A stretch of 64,000 bases of DNA from Candidatus Bathyarchaeota archaeon. GTDB taxonomy: Archaea; Thermoproteota; Bathyarchaeia; Bathyarchaeales; Bathycorpusculaceae. The position numbers and the translations under genes were made by a program. The stretch covers positions 32,001 through 96,000 of the forward strand of contig CAVTZU010000015.1 in the NCBI GenBank assembly GCA_963739305.1, given 5' to 3'. The notes beneath the pieces were generated by a model that had not been told where the DNA came from, searched no databases, and worked only from the letters and a program-made list of their open reading frames with translations. Below, piece by piece: positions 18,126 to 64,000 of this stretch; position 1 is the stretch's first letter, and each line of letters begins with the position of its first letter.

Positions 18126-18324
18126 TCTTGAATCCCTAGTTTGTCTTCTGTTGCTGTGCAGATTAAAGATTTCTGTGTTTGTCGGCTTTGCGTTAACGAT
18201 TCTGAGCCGTCGGCGAAGCGGAACGTCATGGTTGTCAAGTCTCGGGTCTGGTTTTGCAGTCGGTGTGAGAAATCTGATGAGGCTGTTGCGCGCGCAATGT
18301 GTCTCACGTGGCATCAGTGTGAAT

Positions 18325-19128
18325 TCAGGTTGTTTTCTTTGTAACATCGGACTTGAGGAGTCTGTAAGCTGCTATTAGAGTGAATACGATCGCGTAGACG
18401 GCTATGATCAACGACGCTTGGGCAAGGGCTCCAAGGTCACCTGCGGGAAGCACACTGGACGATGTTATCAGTTCACTCATGACAAGCGACGGGAAGTTTG
18501 TTGCTGCCCATGTTGGAATAGCCCGCGTGCTTATGCCATAGAGAAGGGTTAAGATCGGGCTTATGATGTATGAAGCGATAAGTATTGCTAAGGCCAACAG
18601 AATTGCGAGAGTGGTTCCTCTGAAGACTTCGCTGAACATGAATGATAAACAGAAGAAAATGAGAGAAGAATATACAATGGCCAAAAACATTATCGGAGCA
18701 AATTGGAGACCGTTCTGTGCACCAAACAATCCGAGTGAAAGGGCAACGCCTACAAAGGTTATCAAGGCTTCAACCATGGCTAACAAGGAGAATCCGCCCA
18801 AGAACTTCCCAGACATGTACTCAACCCGCGTAATGGGTTTGGAGAGCAATATGTCAGCCGTCCCGTGTTCATATTCTTCAGACATTGAACCGCCGCCAAC
18901 TATGATGGCTATCAACTGAACAAACAAGCCACCTTCCAGCACGCCGGTAATCCACACTAGGGACGCTTCATTCGTCAAGAAACCCTCTGCAAACAGCGCG
19001 TGCATTCCAGCCATTATCAATGTTTGAATTGCTATGGCCAGGATTATGAGGGCAAGAACTTTCTTCTTAGCCAGGGCTCTCCTCCACTCGTACCCAGCGA
19101 TTACAGCGACTCTTCCGAGGGCGTCCAT
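18325..19128 (-). CDS. ABC-2 type permease
   Basis: SEEYEHGTADILLSKPITR motif; about 6 TM segments. Confidence 0.9.
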   Translation of the reverse strand: MDALGRVAVIAGYEWRRALAKKKVLALIILAIAIQTLIMAGMHALFAEGFLTNEASLVWITGVLEGGLFVQLIAIIVGGGSMSEEYEHGTADILLSKPITRVEYMSGKFLGGFSLLAMVEALITFVGVALSLGLFGAQNGLQFAPIMFLAIVYSSLIFFCLSFMFSEVFRGTTLAILLALAILIASYIISPILTLLYGISTRAIPTWAATNFPSLVMSELITSSSVLPAGDLGALAQASLIIAVYAIVFTLIAAYRLLKSDVTKKTT

Positions 19129-19129
19129 G

Positions 19130-20068
19130 CTATTGACCTCCTTTTAGAGCTTGGAGATAAGCGTCTTCCAACGTAACCTTACGGAGGGTTAGGCCTAGCA
19201 ACACGCCTTTTTGTTTGAAGATTTCTGAGGAGATTTCGCCCCTCACGTCTTTTTTCTCCTTCAGCTCTATCGATAGCTTGTTTCCGTCCACCTTTACATC
19301 GTTCACGAACTCAAGCGCTTTAAGGCTTGAGACTATGTTTTCGGTTACTTTTTCAAGCTCGGCTTCCACTACCCATTGTTGAGTGAAAGCTTCCAGCATC
19401 TGTTCGATTGGTCCCGTGAAAACGATTTTTCCCTTGTTTATCATTCCTACGTGGGTGCAGATTCGCTGAACCTCGTCCAACAGGTGAGATGAAATAAAAA
19501 TTGTTTTGCCATCCTTTGAGAGTTTAGTGAAAAGGCTTCTGAAGTGAGCTGTGGCCTCTGGATCCATACCTATGGTGGGCTCATCCATTATCAGAACCAT
19601 TGGATCGTTGATAAGGGCAAGGGCCACAGACAGCCTCTGAACCATGCCTTTGCTGTAGTTTCCAATCTTCTTCTTTCCCCATTCTTTCAAACCGACAAGA
19701 TCTAGGAGCTGCTTAGTCTTTTCCTTTCTAGGCTGCATGGGCAACCCGAACATTTTGCCCATAAAGTCAAGCAACTGCTCTGCAGTGAAGAAAGTTTGAA
19801 GTGTTGGAAGCTCTGAAGCATACCCAACAAGTTGGAGCGCGTGAACGGGATCCTTTGAGGGATTTGCGCCAGCTATCTGAACTTCTCCTTGATTTGGTTT
19901 AAGGAGACCCAGCATAATCCTTATAGTAGTTGTTTTGCCCGCCCCGTTTGGTCCAAGATAGCCGTACACACAGCCTTTATCCACTTTGAAGGAAACAGAG
20001 TCCAAAGCCTCGAATTTTCCGTAGTACTTTGTCAGGTTTGAAACGCTCAAAACCGAAGTGGACGCCAA
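19130..20068 (-). CDS. ABC transporter ATP-binding protein
   Basis: GPNGAGKTT, YSKGMVQR, MDEPTIGMD, SSH. Confidence 0.93.
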   Translation of the reverse strand: MASTSVLSVSNLTKYYGKFEALDSVSFKVDKGCVYGYLGPNGAGKTTTIRIMLGLLKPNQGEVQIAGANPSKDPVHALQLVGYASELPTLQTFFTAEQLLDFMGKMFGLPMQPRKEKTKQLLDLVGLKEWGKKKIGNYSKGMVQRLSVALALINDPMVLIMDEPTIGMDPEATAHFRSLFTKLSKDGKTIFISSHLLDEVQRICTHVGMINKGKIVFTGPIEQMLEAFTQQWVVEAELEKVTENIVSSLKALEFVNDVKVDGNKLSIELKEKKDVRGEISSEIFKQKGVLLGLTLRKVTLEDAYLQALKGGQ

Positions 20069-20199
20069 AAAGATTACCCAGTTCTTAACTATCTTGCGTA
20101 GGCACGCCTAATAACATTTAGGGTTATCACCTATTCGTTGCTATACCTCTTGCTATTCCGCCGGCAGCGTTGCCTTCCTAATAACAAAACGCGCGCGCT

Positions 20200-20232
20200 A
20201 GCTGTTGTTTTGAGTTTTTGTGGGTTAGAGCG
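20200..20232. repeat. 33-bp imperfect direct repeat, copy 1
   Basis: AGCTGTTGTTTTGAGTTTTTGTGGGTTAGAGCG; 29/33 identical to 22148-22180. Confidence 0.7.
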
Positions 20233-20285
20233 TCATCTATAGTCTTATTAGATTAAATCCGACACTCCTAAAAGAGGAAGCAGTG

Positions 20286-21292
20286 ATGTCAGGTAGAGCT
20301 GTAGAAGTAGATCTGAGAAAGGTTAGACCAAACAGGTTCAATCCAAGGCTAGACTTCAATGAAGAAGACCTCAGGAATCTGGCAGATAGCATTCGAGAGA
20401 AAGGTCTTTTGCAGCCGATTATCGTCAGACCCGTAGACAATGAGTTTGAGGTCGTTGTCGGTGAAAGACGGTATAGGGCTGCCCAGAAAGCAGGGATGGA
20501 ACGGATTCCAGTGGTGATTCGAGAGTACTCAGACGAGGAGGTAATTGAACTAAGTCTGATTGAGAATATTCAGAGAACAGATCTAAGCGCGGTTGAGAAA
20601 GGTAACAGTTGCAAGCAACTTATGGAGAAATATCCTCAGAAGTTTCCGAATAAGGGAGCCATAGCGAAATCATTGAGAGTCTCTGAAACAACTATTTCGG
20701 CTTGGCTAGAGCTTGTTGAGGCGCCTAATGAGCTTCAGAGAATGATTGCTCCTGCAGGCAAAATCGGTGTTCCGAGAGAACAGGGGAAAATCGATTGGGA
20801 CACAGCGGTTACTATTACTAGGCAGATAGAACAACCAGATAGACAAGTATCAATCGCGAGGGAAATCGCTAGAAGACCAATTTACAGAAGACAGGCGAGG
20901 GAAGTAATATCAAAGGCTGCAAAACAGCCTGAGAGACCAATTGAACAGATATTCAAGGAGGTAGTCGAGGCTCCTTATGAGATGCCCTTTCGACTTGTAC
21001 ATATGAAACCGATTCTGGATGGAGAGAAAATTCAGAGTTCTAGAAAAGGCATTTCAGATCCTCGCGTCAAAATCGGATCAATAATACATGGGCAGTTTGG
21101 GAACCGAACTTTGCCACGTTGCGTGTCGTTTCGATGGTAAGAAAGCGTCTTGGAGAATTCACTGAAGAGGATGCAAAAAGGGAAGGTGGCTATACTCTCG
21201 CAGAATTCAAGAAGACTTGGAAGAATCTGCATGGTGATTGGAATGAGAACGAGTTCGTCTACGTCTTTGGCTTCCAACTGGTCAGGCAGTAG
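20286..21292 (+). CDS. ParB/Srx N-terminal domain + HTH fused to a C-terminal ASCH domain (frameshift at ~21090)
   Basis: GLLQPIIVRP, VGERRYRA, ENIQRTDL; then MPFRLVHMKPILDGEKIQSSRK / AVWEPNFATLRVVSMVRKRLGEFTEEDAKREGGYTLAEFKKTWKNLHGDWNENEFVYVFGFQLVRQ* in the shifted frame. Confidence 0.8.
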
Positions 21293-21300
21293 GCGATAGC

Positions 21301-22029
21301 ATGTCATGGCGGAAAGAGTCTATTTTAGTTTTGGTTAAGGCGGCACCCAATTGGAGCGACAAATATGGATCATACCTCGTTTGCACTGGTGGCATAACTA
21401 AATCAAATCAGTGGAGGCGCCTATATCCAATGCCTCTGGACTTTATCGTCGGAAAGGTACACCGATGGGACATGATAGAGGTCAACACTACAGAACCTGA
21501 ACATGATCCTCGTTCTGAGAGCAGAAAAATAGATCCAAGTTCAATTGTTGTTGGCGGAAGCTTTTCAAAAGACAAAGAGGAGCGTCGAGTGCTCTTGAAC
21601 AAGCTAGCTGAGAAATCTCTGGACGTGGCAATTGGAGAGAGACGGTCTATCATTCTGATCAAACCAGAGATAGTTGACTTCCACATAGTTGAAAGAAAAG
21701 ATAAGCCAGTGCAGCTTACGCTGAACGGTGAAGTGTTCAAGGAACAACCCTACAGAGACGTAAGCCTCTACTATCGGTGGAATTGTCCAGAACGGTGTCA
21801 TGTGTGCAGCAGACATCCTCACCACATGGAATGCTTCGATTGGGGTGCAGGCGTCCTTTGGAGCAGGTATAAGGCAGACAGAAAAGTCGCCGAGGAGAAG
21901 ATCACTGAAATGTGTTACGACAATATGAAAGAGAAATTCGATGCTTGGTTTGCTTTGGGAACACACAGTCGCCGTCCCTTTAGCAAGTGGATGGTAGTGA
22001 GTCTCTTGTGGATGAAGAAAGCGTTCTAG
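21301..22029 (+). CDS. Conserved hypothetical protein, dual-OB-fold-like, with a Cys/His cluster
   Basis: VKAAP..S.KY...VCTGG...WRRLYP, DPRSES, RSIILIKP, DWG, FALGTH; CPERCHVC..HPHH; starts 8 nt after the ParB-ASCH stop. Confidence 0.65.
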   Translation: MSWRKESILVLVKAAPNWSDKYGSYLVCTGGITKSNQWRRLYPMPLDFIVGKVHRWDMIEVNTTEPEHDPRSESRKIDPSSIVVGGSFSKDKEERRVLLNKLAEKSLDVAIGERRSIILIKPEIVDFHIVERKDKPVQLTLNGEVFKEQPYRDVSLYYRWNCPERCHVCSRHPHHMECFDWGAGVLWSRYKADRKVAEEKITEMCYDNMKEKFDAWFALGTHSRRPFSKWMVVSLLWMKKAF

Positions 22030-22147
22030 TCTCCTTTTGCGTGCGCGCTGTTTGGCGAAAGCCCGCGCAATCAAGTGAATGATGAGTAATCCTTTGGAAG
22101 TTCAGGAGCGCGCGTCTCTTTTTGCCATTCTTTTCGGCGTTTGTCTG

Positions 22148-22180
22148 AGTTGTTGTTTTCAATTTTTGTGGGTTGGAGCG
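22148..22180. repeat. 33-bp imperfect direct repeat, copy 2
   Basis: AGTTGTTGTTTTCAATTTTTGTGGGTTGGAGCG. Confidence 0.7.
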
Positions 22181-22244
22181 CGAGCGTGATGCGAGCGCGA
22201 CATAATGAGCGCGCGCTAAGGGGCGGGCTTGACTTGGAAAAGGG

Positions 22245-22445
22245 TGGTGGGGCCGGGCGGATTTGAACCACCGACCTTTACCCAGAGCAGTGCACGAAGC
22301 GCCGCTCCTACGGGTTTCTTCTGACAGCTCCAGAACCTCTTCATCCCTTTTTGAGGTCCGTAAACCCGTCACTACTTTCTGGAGCCCGTCGTCATACTTG
22401 ATCCGATCGATCGATCGATCGATCGTCTGCCTAGACTACGACCCC
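22245..22445 (-). tRNA. tRNA-Trp(CCA) with three introns (22398-22426, 22316-22378, 22278-22309)
   Basis: Removing 29+63+32 nt gives a 77-nt cloverleaf: GGGGTCG TA GTCTAGGCAGGTATGAC G ACGGG CTCCAGA CCCGT AGGTC GGTGG TTCAAAT CCGCC CGGCCCC ACCA. Confidence 0.88.
22374..22397. repeat. 24-bp perfect direct repeat, copy 2 (att-like core)
   Basis: Identical to 16896-16919. Confidence 0.9.
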
Positions 22446-22589
22446 GCTCCACACGGAGAATCACATCGCACAATTCGAATATATGTATTGTTGCGGCTTC
22501 AGCAAAACCTTCAGCATGGGCATAATGGAGCAAGACGCTCCGCGTTGAAGCGATAAGCTTATGAGGAGAAAGTCAACGTGTACTGTGGG

Positions 22590-22711
22590 GTTCGCCGGCC
22601 ATAGGGCGCGGGTCCCACCTGATCCCATACCGAACTCAGAAGTTAAACCGCGCTCCGTTTCCGGCTGTAGTATGGTCTTCGGCCATGTCAACCCGGGAAA
22701 GCTGGTAACCC
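22590..22711 (+). rRNA. rrf: 5S rRNA (stand-alone)
   Basis: GGCCATAG...GATCCCATACCGAACTCAGAAGTTAA 5S signature; terminal helix GTGGGGTT/AACCCCAC; ends approximate. Confidence 0.93.
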
Positions 22712-22804
22712 CACTTCAAATCAGTCTGGTTAGCCTTCTGATTTGGAGGAAAATTACCCAAAACTTATAACTAACCCTAACACGTGTGTTCCGAAGGTGA
22801 GTTT

Positions 22805-23947
22805 GTGAGCCAAACAGCGGCACTGTTCAGCATACAAAACAAGGTCACTGCGCAATTCGGCAGCGACAACATATCCTGGGTACTCAACATACTTTTCTAC
22901 GTGATCTTCGTTGTCTTCATCTTTTACGGTCAGAGACTGCAAACGTATGTGATGATCAGAGAAGTTGAGGGCTCACTGTACAAGCTCAAGTACATCAAGG
23001 AAGAAGGCCGCAAAATCGCGATTGAAACGATAAAGGAAATCGGTAAACCACAAGCAGACCCGGCTTCTCGAGTAGACAGGTTCCTGGAGTACTTCACGAT
23101 AGGTCCACAGAGCCTCGACCCAGCCGGCATCGTTTGGAAGCTTGAACACATTCTGGATGTGAGAGACGCACGGTTCAAGGATGAAGTGAAACTCATGGCT
23201 CCAGCAGCCGATGAAACACAGACCAACAATCTTGAGAACACGCTTGAGGCAGCCAGCGCGCTAAACTTTATCTACAAAGTCATAAGGCACTATTATCTCC
23301 TCGGCAAGAAGACCCTTAGCTTGTACGTTATCATGCAGATACAGATGATTCTGCCCATGATAATGAAGGAAGCAGAGGCTTACGCGAGTGCGCTCAAAGC
23401 GTTTGCGTATGGCCAGCCTATAGGCGACGGAGCCGGAGCGCTTGTGGCCGCAAAGCTGATGCACGGTTATGAAACGCGAAAACTGGAGAAAGACTGTGTC
23501 GTCGCAACCGTTCCGTTTGAGGGACGAACGGCCTTCGTGATAAAAGCCGAGGGCCCTGGAGGAAACGTGGGTAAGCCTGGAGACGCGGTGAAACAGGTCG
23601 TTGAAGAGAACGAGGGTAAGATTGCGATGATAGTCATGATTGACGCTGCCCTCAAACTTGAGGGTGAGAGCTTGGGCGAAGTTGCTGAGGGTGTTGGGGC
23701 AGCCATCGGTGGACCGGGAGTCGATCAGTTCAAGATCGAAGAGGAACTCGTCAAGTACCACATTCCGATCAACGCCCTCGTTGTCAAGGAGGATATCGGG
23801 GACGCGGTTTCACCGCTCCGCAAAGAGATTTTCGATTCAATCAGCACGGTGATAGATAGAATCAAGCAAGTGGTCTCCGAGAGGACAAAAGAGGGAGACA
23901 GTATAATAATCGCCGGAATCGGCAACACCATTGGAATTGGACAGTAG
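22805..23947 (+). CDS. DUF1512 family protein
   Basis: PIGDGAG, KAEGPGGNVGKPG, IDAALKLEGE, GIGNTIGIGQ; TACK-type family. Confidence 0.85.
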   Translation: MSQTAALFSIQNKVTAQFGSDNISWVLNILFYVIFVVFIFYGQRLQTYVMIREVEGSLYKLKYIKEEGRKIAIETIKEIGKPQADPASRVDRFLEYFTIGPQSLDPAGIVWKLEHILDVRDARFKDEVKLMAPAADETQTNNLENTLEAASALNFIYKVIRHYYLLGKKTLSLYVIMQIQMILPMIMKEAEAYASALKAFAYGQPIGDGAGALVAAKLMHGYETRKLEKDCVVATVPFEGRTAFVIKAEGPGGNVGKPGDAVKQVVEENEGKIAMIVMIDAALKLEGESLGEVAEGVGAAIGGPGVDQFKIEEELVKYHIPINALVVKEDIGDAVSPLRKEIFDSISTVIDRIKQVVSERTKEGDSIIIAGIGNTIGIGQ

Positions 23948-23958
23948 GAGATGAGAGA

Positions 23959-24372
23959 ATGAGCCAGACCAAAGCGACAGCCCCAACGACCAGGATTTCA
24001 GCCTTCCTGCTCATGGTAGTGTTCGTGACACTCGCACTTTCGTTTGTGGCACTGGTATTCGCGGTGTACGCTCTTGACCAGAACACTGAAGCCGCGTATG
24101 TTCTAATGCTGCTGGGCTTAATAGGAGTCGCCATATCCACGTACGTGCTGTACCAGACGAGAAGACGACTTTCAAAACTGAAGATCGTTGTTCCCCCAGT
24201 GTTGACCACGCTTGAATGCTCGGCGTGTCATGAAAAGGACACGAGAGAATTTCTGCGCGGCGACTACATATTCAAAGATGGCGAAAAATGCAAGAAGTGC
24301 AACGGAAGAACGTTGATAACAGCGATATACAGGGAAGTCAAAGACAAAGAAAAAGATAAGACGCCTTTCTAG
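23959..24372 (+). CDS. Membrane protein with C-terminal zinc ribbon
   Basis: Two TM helices, then CSAC...REFLRGDYIFK...CKKC...ITAIYRE. Confidence 0.8.
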   Translation: MSQTKATAPTTRISAFLLMVVFVTLALSFVALVFAVYALDQNTEAAYVLMLLGLIGVAISTYVLYQTRRRLSKLKIVVPPVLTTLECSACHEKDTREFLRGDYIFKDGEKCKKCNGRTLITAIYREVKDKEKDKTPF

Positions 24373-25274
24373 GTCAGAACAACGCATCCGTTTTCAACGA
24401 TCAAAACCGTGTGCTCGGCCTGGGCAACCGTTTTTCCGCTTGCTTCAACGAAAATCGGGTACTGCATCAACGTTTTAGCCTTCAACAATTCACGGAAAGC
24501 CTCATCGTGATGCTCTTGTGGAACCACGTTCTGTAACCAGCGTTCCGCAAACGGTAAGGTTCTGAAGTTGTCCTCGATGTATTTGAGAAGTTTTCTGGCA
24601 TGGGGGTTCTGGATTGACCTTGACTTTAGAAAACGGAAAATCGTGACTTGATCTCCGTTTTCAACTCTTCCGGCGGCGGTTGGAACAGTAACGAAAGGTT
24701 CGATGGCGTAGACTCCTCCGAGCTTGATTTTTGAAGAAAAAAGCTGTGAAACGTTGGGCAACGAGGTGCCCGTGTGAACCACGTAACGGCCGATCTGGTG
24801 ACCAGTGAGATTAGAGATTGGTTTGAAGCCGCGGGATTTGATCGTGGTCTCTATTGTTGAGCCGAGTTTCGAGGTGGATATGCCAGGTCGAATGGTTTCG
24901 ACTGCTGCTTTCAGCGCTCTTTCAGCTGTGCTCACTAGATCCTTGTACTCAGGGCTGAGGCACACTGTGACGGCCGTGTCGGTCAGGTAGCCGTCGACGT
25001 GGGCGCCGATGTCCACCTTCACGACCGAGTTTTCTGGGATGACTGATTTGTCGCCAGGCGGTGAAGTGTAGTGCGCGGCTACTTCGTTGATTGAGACGTT
25101 GCATGGAAACGCGGGTTTTGCGCCTTTTTTCATTATTAGTTGTTCGGCTTTTTCGCAGACGTCGATGATCGGCATTCCTTCGTGTACGAAGGTTTTCATT
25201 TCCTCGCGGGTCTCGCGGAGGATCTTGCCTGACAGTCGGAGTTTTTCAGAAGCTTTTTCGTCAAATTCGGTCAT
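24369..25274 (-). CDS. map: Type II methionine aminopeptidase
   Basis: AFPCNVSINEVAAHYT, DIGAHVDGYLTD, NLTGH, AIEPF, AQAEHT. Confidence 0.96.
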   Translation of the reverse strand: MTEFDEKASEKLRLSGKILRETREEMKTFVHEGMPIIDVCEKAEQLIMKKGAKPAFPCNVSINEVAAHYTSPPGDKSVIPENSVVKVDIGAHVDGYLTDTAVTVCLSPEYKDLVSTAERALKAAVETIRPGISTSKLGSTIETTIKSRGFKPISNLTGHQIGRYVVHTGTSLPNVSQLFSSKIKLGGVYAIEPFVTVPTAAGRVENGDQVTIFRFLKSRSIQNPHARKLLKYIEDNFRTLPFAERWLQNVVPQEHHDEAFRELLKAKTLMQYPIFVEASGKTVAQAEHTVLIVENGCVVLT

Positions 25275-62216: not shown

Positions 62217-64000
62217 TCAGCCTCCGAAGAAGTCCGTGATTTTCCGAGTTTCCTTCGCGCCCACTTCTTTCTGAAGGAGTTGGTCTTCCGTCACGCCAAA
62301 GCTCTCAAGAATTCTCGCCGCTGCAGGCACGACTTGCTTTGACACATAATACTCCAAATCTATCTCGTCGTAAGTGGCGAGCACGTAAGGCTTCACGCGT
62401 TCGTAAAGGCGACCTTTGCCAACGACTACCACGAAACCGATTTTGTCGCCTACAGAAAGTGTCCACCCCTTTGCTCTCAGCATTTTCGCGGCCTCCACAT
62501 GGGAAGCCTTGACCGCATAATCTTCAGCCGGTTTGGTCAACGTCTTCCATATAACCAAGTCTCGGTAGGGAACGCGCCTCTGTCTAAGCTCGTAAATAAA
62601 TCGCTGCACGAAGTCAGCAGCCTTCTTCGGAGACTGCTCCTTCAGGATAATCTCCAATACTCTTTCTTGAACTTGCTTGGCAATCGTCGCCCAATCACCA
62701 CGCACAACCTCCAGGCCCACGATATCCAGTCGACCGTCGGGCAACAGGCCAGCGTAACGTTTCTTGGCTTCTGTGAAAAAAATCCGCACATAGACCTCGT
62801 CGGGCTTGACTTCTAAACCAATCATTTTCATTATTTCGTCTGACAACTTTTCTATCTTCACCGCCTGATTCTCTACGAAGATGCTGTCAGTATCACCGTA
62901 GACAACTTTCAACTTTGCTTTCTTGGCAAGCTCAATGGCAGTCAAAATCGTATGCCTGCCCCATGCTGCTGCGGCTTCGGCGACGGGTTTGACGTACCAT
63001 CTTGCGCCCGTCCAACCGGCATAGCCATAGGATGCGTTAGTGATTATCTTCACAGCCTTCTGGCGCGCGTCCAGCACGCGGTATTCAGCGCTTTCTGGCT
63101 TGAGTTTGCTCATTCTAGGACGTATTTGGTCTCGCACCTGGATTAGATAAGAAAGAACTTCCTTGTAGAAACCAGGCGGTTCCTTCCTGAACTTGTGTTT
63201 TACTTCGGGAGCCTCGAAGAATCCTTCAGGCGGGATTGGATCTTCGGGTGACACGTAGGTGTCAGGCGAAAGATTGTAGATGATCATCAAGTTTGGGTAC
63301 ATGGACTTGAAGTCTAGAACGGCAATGTTATCGTGCAATCCAGGCGTTGGTTTGAGGACGAGGCCGCCCGAGTAAGGCCTGTAGGGTTGTTCGATTCTCT
63401 TAGGCACGAGTTCGCCTATCGAGTGCGTGCGTTTTATGAGAAACCATTCTACGCGGAAGCCGGCAGCTGCAGTTCCGACATGATCAAGCGGCAAGCTCAC
63501 TAAGCTAGACAGTTGAATTGCGAAATTCAATATAGCTTCAGTTATACCCATGACACACACGGTGTTATCCATCGAGAACTCTTTGAGCAAACCACGTTTT
63601 TCTTCGTTGTCCCAATAGTCTGGAAAATCCATGTCCTCAATAGTCCGTCGCTTTTCGATTTTCATCACATCCAGATAGTCTGCGAGGTTGGCAAGGGTCT
63701 TGACTTTGACTTCAGGAAATTCCTCTACGTAATCAGCGAGGTCCAACCCTGCCCTTCCGGAAATGGATACGTGACCGTAAACGCTGGTGTGAGGTTCAGT
63801 AGGCGTTCTGTCGACGTTTAATTTTAATCGGTGGTGTTTGCATCTTTCTCTAAGGTAACTCCAATCCTGCGTGTTGTTGCCATAGCTTACGATTATGTCT
63901 GGATCGCAAGTCTGAACGTATTCCGTGAAATCTGCCAGAACGGACTTGTCATTCTTGTCTTCTCCCGCCACAAACTGCCTGTGTTCACCATTGTTGGTCG
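62217..64000 (-). CDS. polB: Family B DNA polymerase (5' end outside the window)
   Basis: DFKSMYP, KIITNASYGY, YGDTDS, KKRYAG. Confidence 0.95.
   Translation of the reverse strand, partial: TNNGEHRQFVAGEDKNDKSVLADFTEYVQTCDPDIIVSYGNNTQDWSYLRERCKHHRLKLNVDRTPTEPHTSVYGHVSISGRAGLDLADYVEEFPEVKVKTLANLADYLDVMKIEKRRTIEDMDFPDYWDNEEKRGLLKEFSMDNTVCVMGITEAILNFAIQLSSLVSLPLDHVGTAAAGFRVEWFLIKRTHSIGELVPKRIEQPYRPYSGGLVLKPTPGLHDNIAVLDFKSMYPNLMIIYNLSPDTYVSPEDPIPPEGFFEAPEVKHKFRKEPPGFYKEVLSYLIQVRDQIRPRMSKLKPESAEYRVLDARQKAVKIITNASYGYAGWTGARWYVKPVAEAAAAWGRHTILTAIELAKKAKLKVVYGDTDSIFVENQAVKIEKLSDEIMKMIGLEVKPDEVYVRIFFTEAKKRYAGLLPDGRLDIVGLEVVRGDWATIAKQVQERVLEIILKEQSPKKAADFVQRFIYELRQRRVPYRDLVIWKTLTKPAEDYAVKASHVEAAKMLRAKGWTLSVGDKIGFVVVVGKGRLYERVKPYVLATYDEIDLEYYVSKQVVPAAARILESFGVTEDQLLQKEVGAKETRKITDFFGG

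Follow-up and report, generated by a model that had tools for sequence, protein, structure and literature searches.

A ParB–ASCH fusion gene and a probable dual OB-fold partner form a conserved two-gene operon in Bathyarchaeia

Introduction

The pairing of a DUF488 gene with a gene for an oligonucleotide/oligosaccharide-binding (OB) fold protein is already known as PDC-M19, one of the PDC candidates in PADLOC, which were found embedded in BREX, DISARM or type I restriction-modification (R-M) loci (Payne et al., bioRxiv 10.1101/2024.01.29.577857). Fusions of a ParB N-domain and a helix-turn-helix (HTH) to an ASCH domain have been recorded as well, both as an archaeal architecture and in cyanobacterial methylase contexts. 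Here we analyse a locus of a Candidatus Bathyarchaeota genome at which such a fusion stands directly in front of a gene of the PDC-M19 partner family. The locus lies in a stretch of 64,000 nucleotides (nt), called the window below, on a 124-kb contig (C15; this and the other contig, genome and locus labels, such as C8, G401 and L066, are internal to the analysis). It comprises a ParB N-domain–HTH–ASCH fusion gene (gene 1; 20286–21292, plus strand) and a partner gene of 242 amino acids (aa) that starts 8 nt past the TAG of gene 1 (21301–22029, plus strand).

The separate parts of gene 1 have described relatives. A preprint on fusions of the ParB-CTPase fold (10.1101/2025.10.10.680097) lists the ParB–ASCH architecture as enriched in archaea and reports that an archaeal DUF488–HTH ParB fusion bound cytidine triphosphate (CTP); the passages of it drawn on here treat the fusion alone, as 'RNA-related', and mention neither a dual-OB partner nor catalysis by ASCH. 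The E. coli N4-acetylcytidine (ac4C) amidohydrolase YqfB (PDB 1te7, 9kyf) is a free-standing enzyme of 103 aa with nucleosides as substrates, whose Lys21, Thr24, Arg26 and Glu74 are described as catalytic on the basis of mutagenesis in the parts of PMC6972931 cited here. Passages of a 2026 preprint state that all 19 ASCH proteins assayed remove tRNA ac4C, and assign a GK[T/S]R octapeptide to the YqfB-type enzymes. In the literature searches made, we found no description of ParB–ASCH paired with a dual-OB protein, of an exchange between ASCH and DUF488, or of a catalytic set of the YqfB type and how solo lineages lose it; nor do the terms 'DUF488', 'OB-fold' and 'ParB' occur in the main text of Rousset 2022 (PMC9122126), whose supplements may bear on the point.

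Results and discussion

A two-gene operon built on the plan of PDC-M19

A survey of homologue neighbourhoods shows that ParB–HTH–ASCH and the partner form a conserved two-gene operon. A profile of the partner retrieved 80 metagenome loci, 67 of them testable for the upstream gene, the others having no upstream sequence (four loci) or holding partner fragments (nine). The gene directly upstream was ParB–HTH–ASCH in 60 loci, ParB–HTH–DUF488 in six and neither in one, which lies on a rearranged contig, so that the partner directly follows an ASCH- or DUF488-ended ParB–HTH gene in 66 of 67 cases, with a median gap of 11 nt. The same linkage was present in six of the seven loci from genomes (L001–L007), L007 being a partner fragment only. 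The recurrent linkage on which a sequence-only reading of this locus had made its proposal depend is thus borne out.

By blastn and comparison of the flanks, five contigs from other samples share exactly 20232–22040 of the window (plus strand) at 88–94% identity, and nothing outside it, their flanks being unlike those of the window. The shared segment holds the promoter region, both genes and 11 nt beyond the partner, and spans 1809 nt in the window against 1810 nt in four relatives (1806 against 1807 nt for the shorter match in L066).

The partner matches the PADLOC profile PDC-M19B (PDLC04507) at 1.9e-28, residues 4–240 aligning to positions 4–241 of 252, and the pair resembles PDC-M19 in having the same gene B family at full length and two co-oriented, tightly spaced genes. 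It differs in the first gene: the PDC-M19A models cover the DUF488 domain, match only the DUF488 part of ParB–DUF488 proteins, and gave no match to the window ParB, to its intact orthologue (P0091) or to a solo paralogue from the same genome. Because PDC-M19A is a DUF488 protein while the partner matches PDC-M19B, the domain content indicates that the pair follows the PDC-M19 plan, except that the ParB–HTH carrier bears ASCH and not DUF488. The sequence-only reading had proposed an undescribed system. This holds in part: the partner is a full-length match to a catalogued candidate, and it is the ParB–ASCH gene alone that falls outside the PDC-M19 definition.

The DUF488 sister form is found on plasmids of Sulfolobales and Haloquadratum. 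There (Saccharolobus pBEU9E1, Sulfolobus islandicus plasmids, Haloquadratum PL100) the same ParB N-domain and HTH scaffold adjoins the same partner family, but the C-terminal enzyme-like domain is DUF488 and not ASCH. The partner family also adjoins plain DUF488 genes on bacterial plasmids, and in one protein (P0260) DUF488 is fused directly to a partner-family domain. These cases confirm the earlier view, drawn from motifs, that the partner resembles OB proteins found with DUF488.

Two side observations concern the composition of the module. A small ORF (open reading frame) of about 96–128 aa lies directly upstream of ParB–DUF488 in L002 (1789–2079), L015 (3398–3697) and L120 (4236–4619), and in L017 a related ORF of 137 aa immediately precedes the partner fragment; the L002 copy, when scanned, had no Pfam match. 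It is possible that this ORF is a third component of the DUF488 form. In L067, a metagenome contig from a close relative, the partner is truncated at residue 41 and the ParB part is inverted at the far end of the locus, which indicates either a rearrangement inside the module or an assembly artefact.

Gene 1 of the window lacks one base

Gene 1 is not read in a single frame in the window. A ParB ORF occupies 20283–21140 in frame 0, with start candidates GTG 20283 and ATG 20286, of which the ATG is probably the start, and an ORF in the −1 frame closes at TAG 21290–21292; both had been pointed out before and are indeed present. Gene 1 is read in frame 0 up to 21090 and in frame −1 from 21092 to the TAG. 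That restoring one base near 21090 gives a ParB protein ending in ASCH, as the sequence-only reading had it, is supported by intact homologues of 334–335 aa, up to 97% identical, which read ...SIIH-AAVWEP... through the junction, and by a DNA alignment with four related loci, according to which a C is missing directly after 21090, from an alanine codon of the form GCR. Apart from this point both genes are open.

The extra C is present in contigs from three of four public runs. These contigs come from relatives a few per cent away from the window (a piece from run X2 has 58 other letters in 1,762 bases), and the fourth run, which best matches the window's own variant, has no contig across 21090. 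The break is real in the assembly; its cause could be a mutation or an assembly error. A genuine mutation would leave gene 1 truncated in this genome.

The ASCH domain and its probable tie to the partner

The last 100 residues of gene 1 form an ASCH domain. Pfam ASCH (PF04266, cut-off 21.2 bits) scores 22.3 bits in the intact orthologue and 25.4 bits in the solo paralogue; the broken tail of the window alone stays under the cut-off at 17.3 bits. In a Foldseek search with a model of the domain (predicted local distance difference test, pLDDT, 88.6), the top 19 listed matches were ASCH-family or ASCH-like structures, led by YqfB with template modelling (TM) scores of 0.71/0.79. A hidden Markov model alignment places K21, T24, R26 and E74 of YqfB on invariant residues of the fusion, and a GK[T/S]R-type octapeptide is retained too. 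The two proteins differ in that the module domain is tethered to a ParB clamp, and in that His70 of YqfB corresponds to an invariant Asp in the fusion. In the window, K, S and R stand before the break and E after it.

The YqfB-type K/T(S)/R/E tetrad is intact in all 56 partner-linked genes and in 9 of 28 partner-less ones. We read this as the strongest evidence here: because of this difference, the ASCH domain would be an active enzyme in the module, with its activity tied to the OB partner. The sequence-only reading had suggested that the module senses modified nucleic acid; the conserved catalytic residues suggest that it probably acts on such nucleic acid instead of sensing it.

Partner-less fusions are the more common form. 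Full-length ParB–ASCH was found in 40 of 401 genomes at E≤1e-80, far more often than the partner, and most copies are partner-less. These solo genes are vertically inherited with family-specific synteny in three families of Bathyarchaeia (loci L022–L049 among them): in f4 the gene is convergent with a topoisomerase IB gene (11 of 11 genomes), in f24 it lies between Hsp20 and ArgRS genes (12 of 16), and in f1 between an HD-domain gene and DUF362. The solo paralogue of the present genome is at 62220–63203 of contig C8 (locus L010). Among 85 genes (56 paired, 28 solo and one undetermined) placed in a quick maximum-likelihood tree, rooted at the midpoint and built from paired and solo sets collected with different queries, the solo genes make up three well-supported clades, each one taxonomic family and each nested among paired forms. 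The tetrad is intact in 0 of 6 genes of f24, 2 of 10 of f4 and 7 of 12 of f1, which counts as three events and not as 28, kin not being independent; the substitutions differ within clades, as relaxed constraint would give. Because 19 of 28 solo genes and no paired gene lost catalytic residues, paired and solo forms are under different constraints, and this pattern suggests a domesticated, non-enzymatic chromosomal role for solo ParB–ASCH proteins that lost them.

The synteny of the solo genes, together with the deacetylation of tRNA ac4C by 19 of 19 ASCH proteins in the 2026 preprint, would also fit a cellular regulator of nucleic-acid modification, either an ac4C eraser tethered to DNA or RNA or a nucleoid protein, without any conflict role, the paired form doing the same housekeeping job as the solo one. 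Against this, the partner-linked form is sporadic and missing from six congeners, catalytic residues are often lost in solo genes and never in paired ones, and the solo genes are three separate clades nested among paired forms. We therefore consider such a regulator quite improbable.

A ParB carrier outside a partition context

The ParB part looks canonical: gene 1 of the window matches Pfam ParB_N at 5e-33 (113 bits) and TIGR00180 with 147.2 bits (cut-off 58.45), its profile finds the structures of Spo0J, ParB and Noc (1e-37 to 1e-28), and the GERRxxA and ENxQR boxes vary little or not at all across 44 homologues. The N-domain and HTH with their conserved nucleotide-binding boxes are thus shared with canonical ParABS and Noc proteins, and their closeness to chromosomal ParB and Noc, together with three ParA/MinD-type genes above cut-off on other contigs of the genome, would be compatible with an ordinary module for partition or centromere binding that has its ParA gene at another locus. 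However, the C-terminal dimerisation domain of ParB is replaced by ASCH (residues 243–333 of the intact orthologue), and the gene that constantly adjoins it encodes an OB protein and no ATPase. As had been noted from the sequence, no parA is nearby: neither AAA_31 (PF13614) nor CbiA (PF01656) has a match anywhere on the 124-kb contig, and ParA is not among the recurrent neighbours in 86 loci. Archaeal ParB homologues are, in addition, rarely linked to ParA according to passages of a survey preprint. A partition role is very unlikely, and the earlier rejection of a partition system holds on two counts, the lack of ParA on the contig and the missing dimerisation domain.

The partner probably consists of two OB folds

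The 242-aa partner contains all the motifs that the sequence-only reading had quoted, including the C-x3-C-x2-C and HxHH cluster. Of these cluster residues (a probable zinc site), C162, C166, H174 and C178 are conserved, plus C169 in the close family. Besides PDC-M19B, the partner matches phrog_25907 at 1.8e-20; it has no Pfam or NCBIfam match, and a profile search against PDB sequences gave nothing below E 0.09. The AlphaFold model (pLDDT 91.2, predicted TM score 0.88) retrieved with Foldseek RPA70 A/B, the Oxytricha telomere-end-binding protein (TEBP) and HIN-200, with probabilities of 0.97–1.0 and low global TM. With the VIA aligner, residues 1–90 match the OB folds of SSB, RPA and PriB, and residues 101–242 match RMI1 OB2 (Z 7.6) and RPA70 DBD-C (Z 6.5). 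Two OB folds are thus the likely fold class of the model, in keeping with the dual-OB-like protein that had been proposed, and kinship with any of these proteins is not implied at Z below 8.

A similar arrangement of two OB folds is found in Pfam DuOB (PF22557) and in the OB arrays of RPA70; DuOB associates with DUF488, and the C-terminal OB of the partner resembles RMI1 OB2 and RPA70 DBD-C. The link to DuOB is weak: PF22557 does not match the window protein, occurs below cut-off in 2 of 54 partner relatives (best E 1.3e-4), and scores 20.4 bits against a cut-off of 27 in a Saccharolobus homologue, and the ESM-Atlas cluster carrying DuOB ranks 27th for the partner, at 0.85.

Sporadic distribution and variable neighbourhoods

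At 50% identity the large partner family falls into 1,825 clusters (E≤0.001). Among the 401 sampled Bathyarchaeia genomes the partner profile is present in 10, of which this genome and a single further one give strong matches, and it is absent from six congeners (five of them added separately; one a closed genome). A search of genome contigs with the single partner protein gave 46 pattern matches, none of which was confirmed. Besides the two genes themselves, no neighbour family occurs in more than 4 of 86 clustered loci. The partner-linked module is sporadic and accessory and probably horizontally mobile; its scattered distribution, variable contexts and self-contained linked pair are in keeping with the earlier description of a mobile two-gene module.

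The 150 neighbour proteins within 4 kb include four phage-type integrases, three TGT, DNA methylases of three kinds (3, 3 and 2), and two restriction endonucleases, about eight matches in all being to R-M methylases or endonucleases; Cas1, DUF499 and a type ISP domain occur once each. As raw counts, given without a background set, these are suggestive of neighbourhoods that are variable and partly defence-rich or mobile.

What the module may do

Taking these results together, we read the module as a conflict-type, horizontally mobile two-gene operon of Bathyarchaeia that acts on nucleic acid and does not serve partition, and we would give this reading an even chance. In such an operon, the ParB part, as a clamp of the CTP-switch type, would load on DNA and slide, the RPA-like tandem-OB partner would hold single-stranded or unwound nucleic acid, and the tethered ASCH domain (DUF488 in the sister form) would hydrolyse a base modification of the N4-acyl-cytosine kind. 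The target would be invading or mobile DNA, in a conflict between a virus or plasmid and its host.

Several points weigh against a conflict module of this kind. Its copy of gene 1 in the window is broken, which allows no statement on activity in this organism, and no anomaly of GC content or composition was found over the module segment. The OB matches are middling, their VIA Z scores of 6–7.6 lying under the caution line of 8 given for the tool. PDC-M19 is itself a 'guilt-by-embedding' candidate only and is not named in the main text of its source (10.1101/2024.01.29.577857), and the known ASCH substrates are RNA or nucleosides (tRNA ac4C), not DNA. Most neighbour proteins are products of housekeeping or unknown genes. 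Finally, the partner family is found on plasmids (Sulfolobales, Haloquadratum, the conjugative IncP plasmid pYS1 and a Sulfitobacter plasmid) and its nearest ESM-Atlas cluster is 67% viral, placements that fit a role in mobile elements equally well.

Such a role would consist in serving the element during establishment, anti-defence or maintenance, for example by protecting or processing incoming single-stranded DNA or by erasing a base mark imposed by the host, and chromosomal copies would be remnants of integrated elements. Partner-family genes are present on 15 plasmid records, one Sulfolobales copy being next to a transfer gene with a TraM-recognition domain and the Sulfitobacter pair next to ssb, radC and DUF932 genes; the phrog_25907 match, the viral ESM-Atlas cluster and the four integrases among the neighbours point the same way. 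On the other hand, several copies sit among housekeeping genes in contigs of 0.85–2.07 Mb, phage records gave no match to the window protein by tblastn, and the related DUF488 form was detected inside BREX, DISARM or type I R-M loci, a setting more characteristic of host defence. We consider a module that serves mobile elements somewhat unlikely. As to whether a conflict module would serve the host (defence) or the element (establishment, anti-defence), the data fit both, and the carriage by plasmids and viruses is substantial.

A more specific proposal, which we hold to be rather unlikely, is that the module is an eraser of DNA base modifications. A CTP-gated ParB clamp would carry a YqfB-type amidohydrolase, the RPA-like partner would expose single-strand bases, and N4-acyl or similar amide-linked groups would be stripped from cytosines of invading or own DNA, DUF488 performing analogous chemistry in the sister form. 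Three lineages of Bathyarchaeia would then have domesticated the clamp and shed the partner, and their catalytic site would have decayed.

The locus in the window lies at a lineage-specific junction

The left flank of the module (18300–20125) consists of ABC transporter genes, and the right flank (22427–24375) of a tRNA gene, a 5S rRNA gene (22591–22710, plus strand; Rfam RF00001, 69.3 bits) and a DUF1512 gene. These flanks are not adjacent in any of the five congeners in which both occur: in the closed genome G401 about 1.15 Mb separate them, and in G402, G403, G407 and G408 they fall on different contigs. The pair thus sits at a lineage-specific junction, which is either a lineage-specific rearrangement at a repeat or a chimeric join in a metagenome-assembled genome with 7.8% contamination.

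The repeat in question is present on both sides. Copy 1 (20190–20232, plus strand), identified by repeat search, an nhmmer profile (E 1.2e-6) and alignment of the copies, comprises the 5' half only and ends exactly at 20232, where the homology to other module loci begins. Copy 2 (22140–22220, plus strand; nhmmer E 2.1e-21) has the full core at 22148–22207. The direct repeats 20200–20232 and 22148–22180, which had led to the proposal of a repeat-flanked cassette, are real, with 88% identity over 33 nt; however, they belong to a dispersed, 60–80-nt intergenic family of the host genus, with nine copies in this genome (E<1e-5) and others in congeners, and are no feature of the module, as no other locus with the pair has the repeat.

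The locus may, alternatively, be a decaying or misassembled remnant, either a real frameshift with a dead pair or a contig that is chimeric at a high-copy repeat. The missing base sets the window apart from all four aligned relatives, the flanks are separated in five congeners of a genome whose contamination is noted above, and the repeat between module and tRNA is extremely deep in contigs from wetland, peat and sediment, with a word depth of up to 45,563 per bin against about 3–115 in most bins away from the repeats and the tRNA, and with loose contig ends at 22148 and 22207. The contig join across this repeat to the tRNA is putative. Both borders of the module segment are nevertheless bridged by contigs of the best-matching run (one difference at 20232, none at 22040), the two genes are open apart from one base, and gaps of one base often arise as assembly errors too. 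We regard a remnant as quite possible, although we lean against it.

The repeat may serve for recombination in an uncharacterised system of cassettes or integrative elements. Of seven independent repeat sites, four have a tyrosine recombinase gene within 4 kb (P ~1.5e-4 for random placement); the cassette in the window lies 46–48 kb from the nearest one. With no recombinase beside it and no element-specific att sites, the locus does not qualify as an integron cassette or integrative element. The repeat gave no significant folding signal on either strand (z −2.0 to +0.2, weak alifold) and is not attC-like by inspection, and Rfam had no match at gathering score in the 461 nt around copy 2 (22100–22560). 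Contig joints from three runs that skip 1949–1963 nt between the repeats were considered as traces of excision or of an empty site; we read them as other genomic repeat copies because their short sides measure 24–58 nt at a likeness threshold of 90. Further copies in this genome (G000) are at C30:41–125, C28:33850–33933, C8:10929–11014, C25:15723–15806, C26:12657–12715, C26:13904–13964 and C15:7073–7139. The two copies on C26, 1.25 kb apart, enclose just one small membrane-protein gene, which adjoins a recombinase.

An intron-bearing tRNA gene (22245–22445, minus strand), called by ARAGORN with introns allowed, has its 3' end facing the module; default ARAGORN and Rfam at gathering thresholds found no tRNA near the module. 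The ARAGORN call, Ala(CGC) with a single forced intron of 123 nt, was set aside in favour of Trp(CCA) from the orthologue in G401, a tRNA-Trp(CCA) with one canonical 76-nt intron. Read by hand, the gene appears to be a tRNA-Trp(CCA) with three inserts: in the D-loop, with a (GATC)n microsatellite run, at the canonical 37/38 position and in the variable loop. The observation that the pair abuts a tRNA 3' end is thus correct at this locus, but it is not general: of the 73 metagenome loci in which a partner ORF was called, three have an ARAGORN tRNA within 1 kb of the module. In L066, a tRNA-like 3' end missed by ARAGORN can be seen by eye.

Conclusions

The pair of DUF488 and a dual-OB protein is widespread and has no known activity. 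The ASCH variant described here gives a biochemical handle on it, because YqfB-type ASCH has a defined reaction and defined catalytic residues, the full set of which is intact without exception only in the paired genes. This leads to testable hypotheses, namely that the enzyme domain is the effector, that the OB protein is needed for its work and that the ParB clamp delivers it to DNA, and the paired catalytic and solo decayed forms offer a natural series in which they can be studied. If they were true, ParB CTP switches would gain a new job, that of carrying an enzyme.

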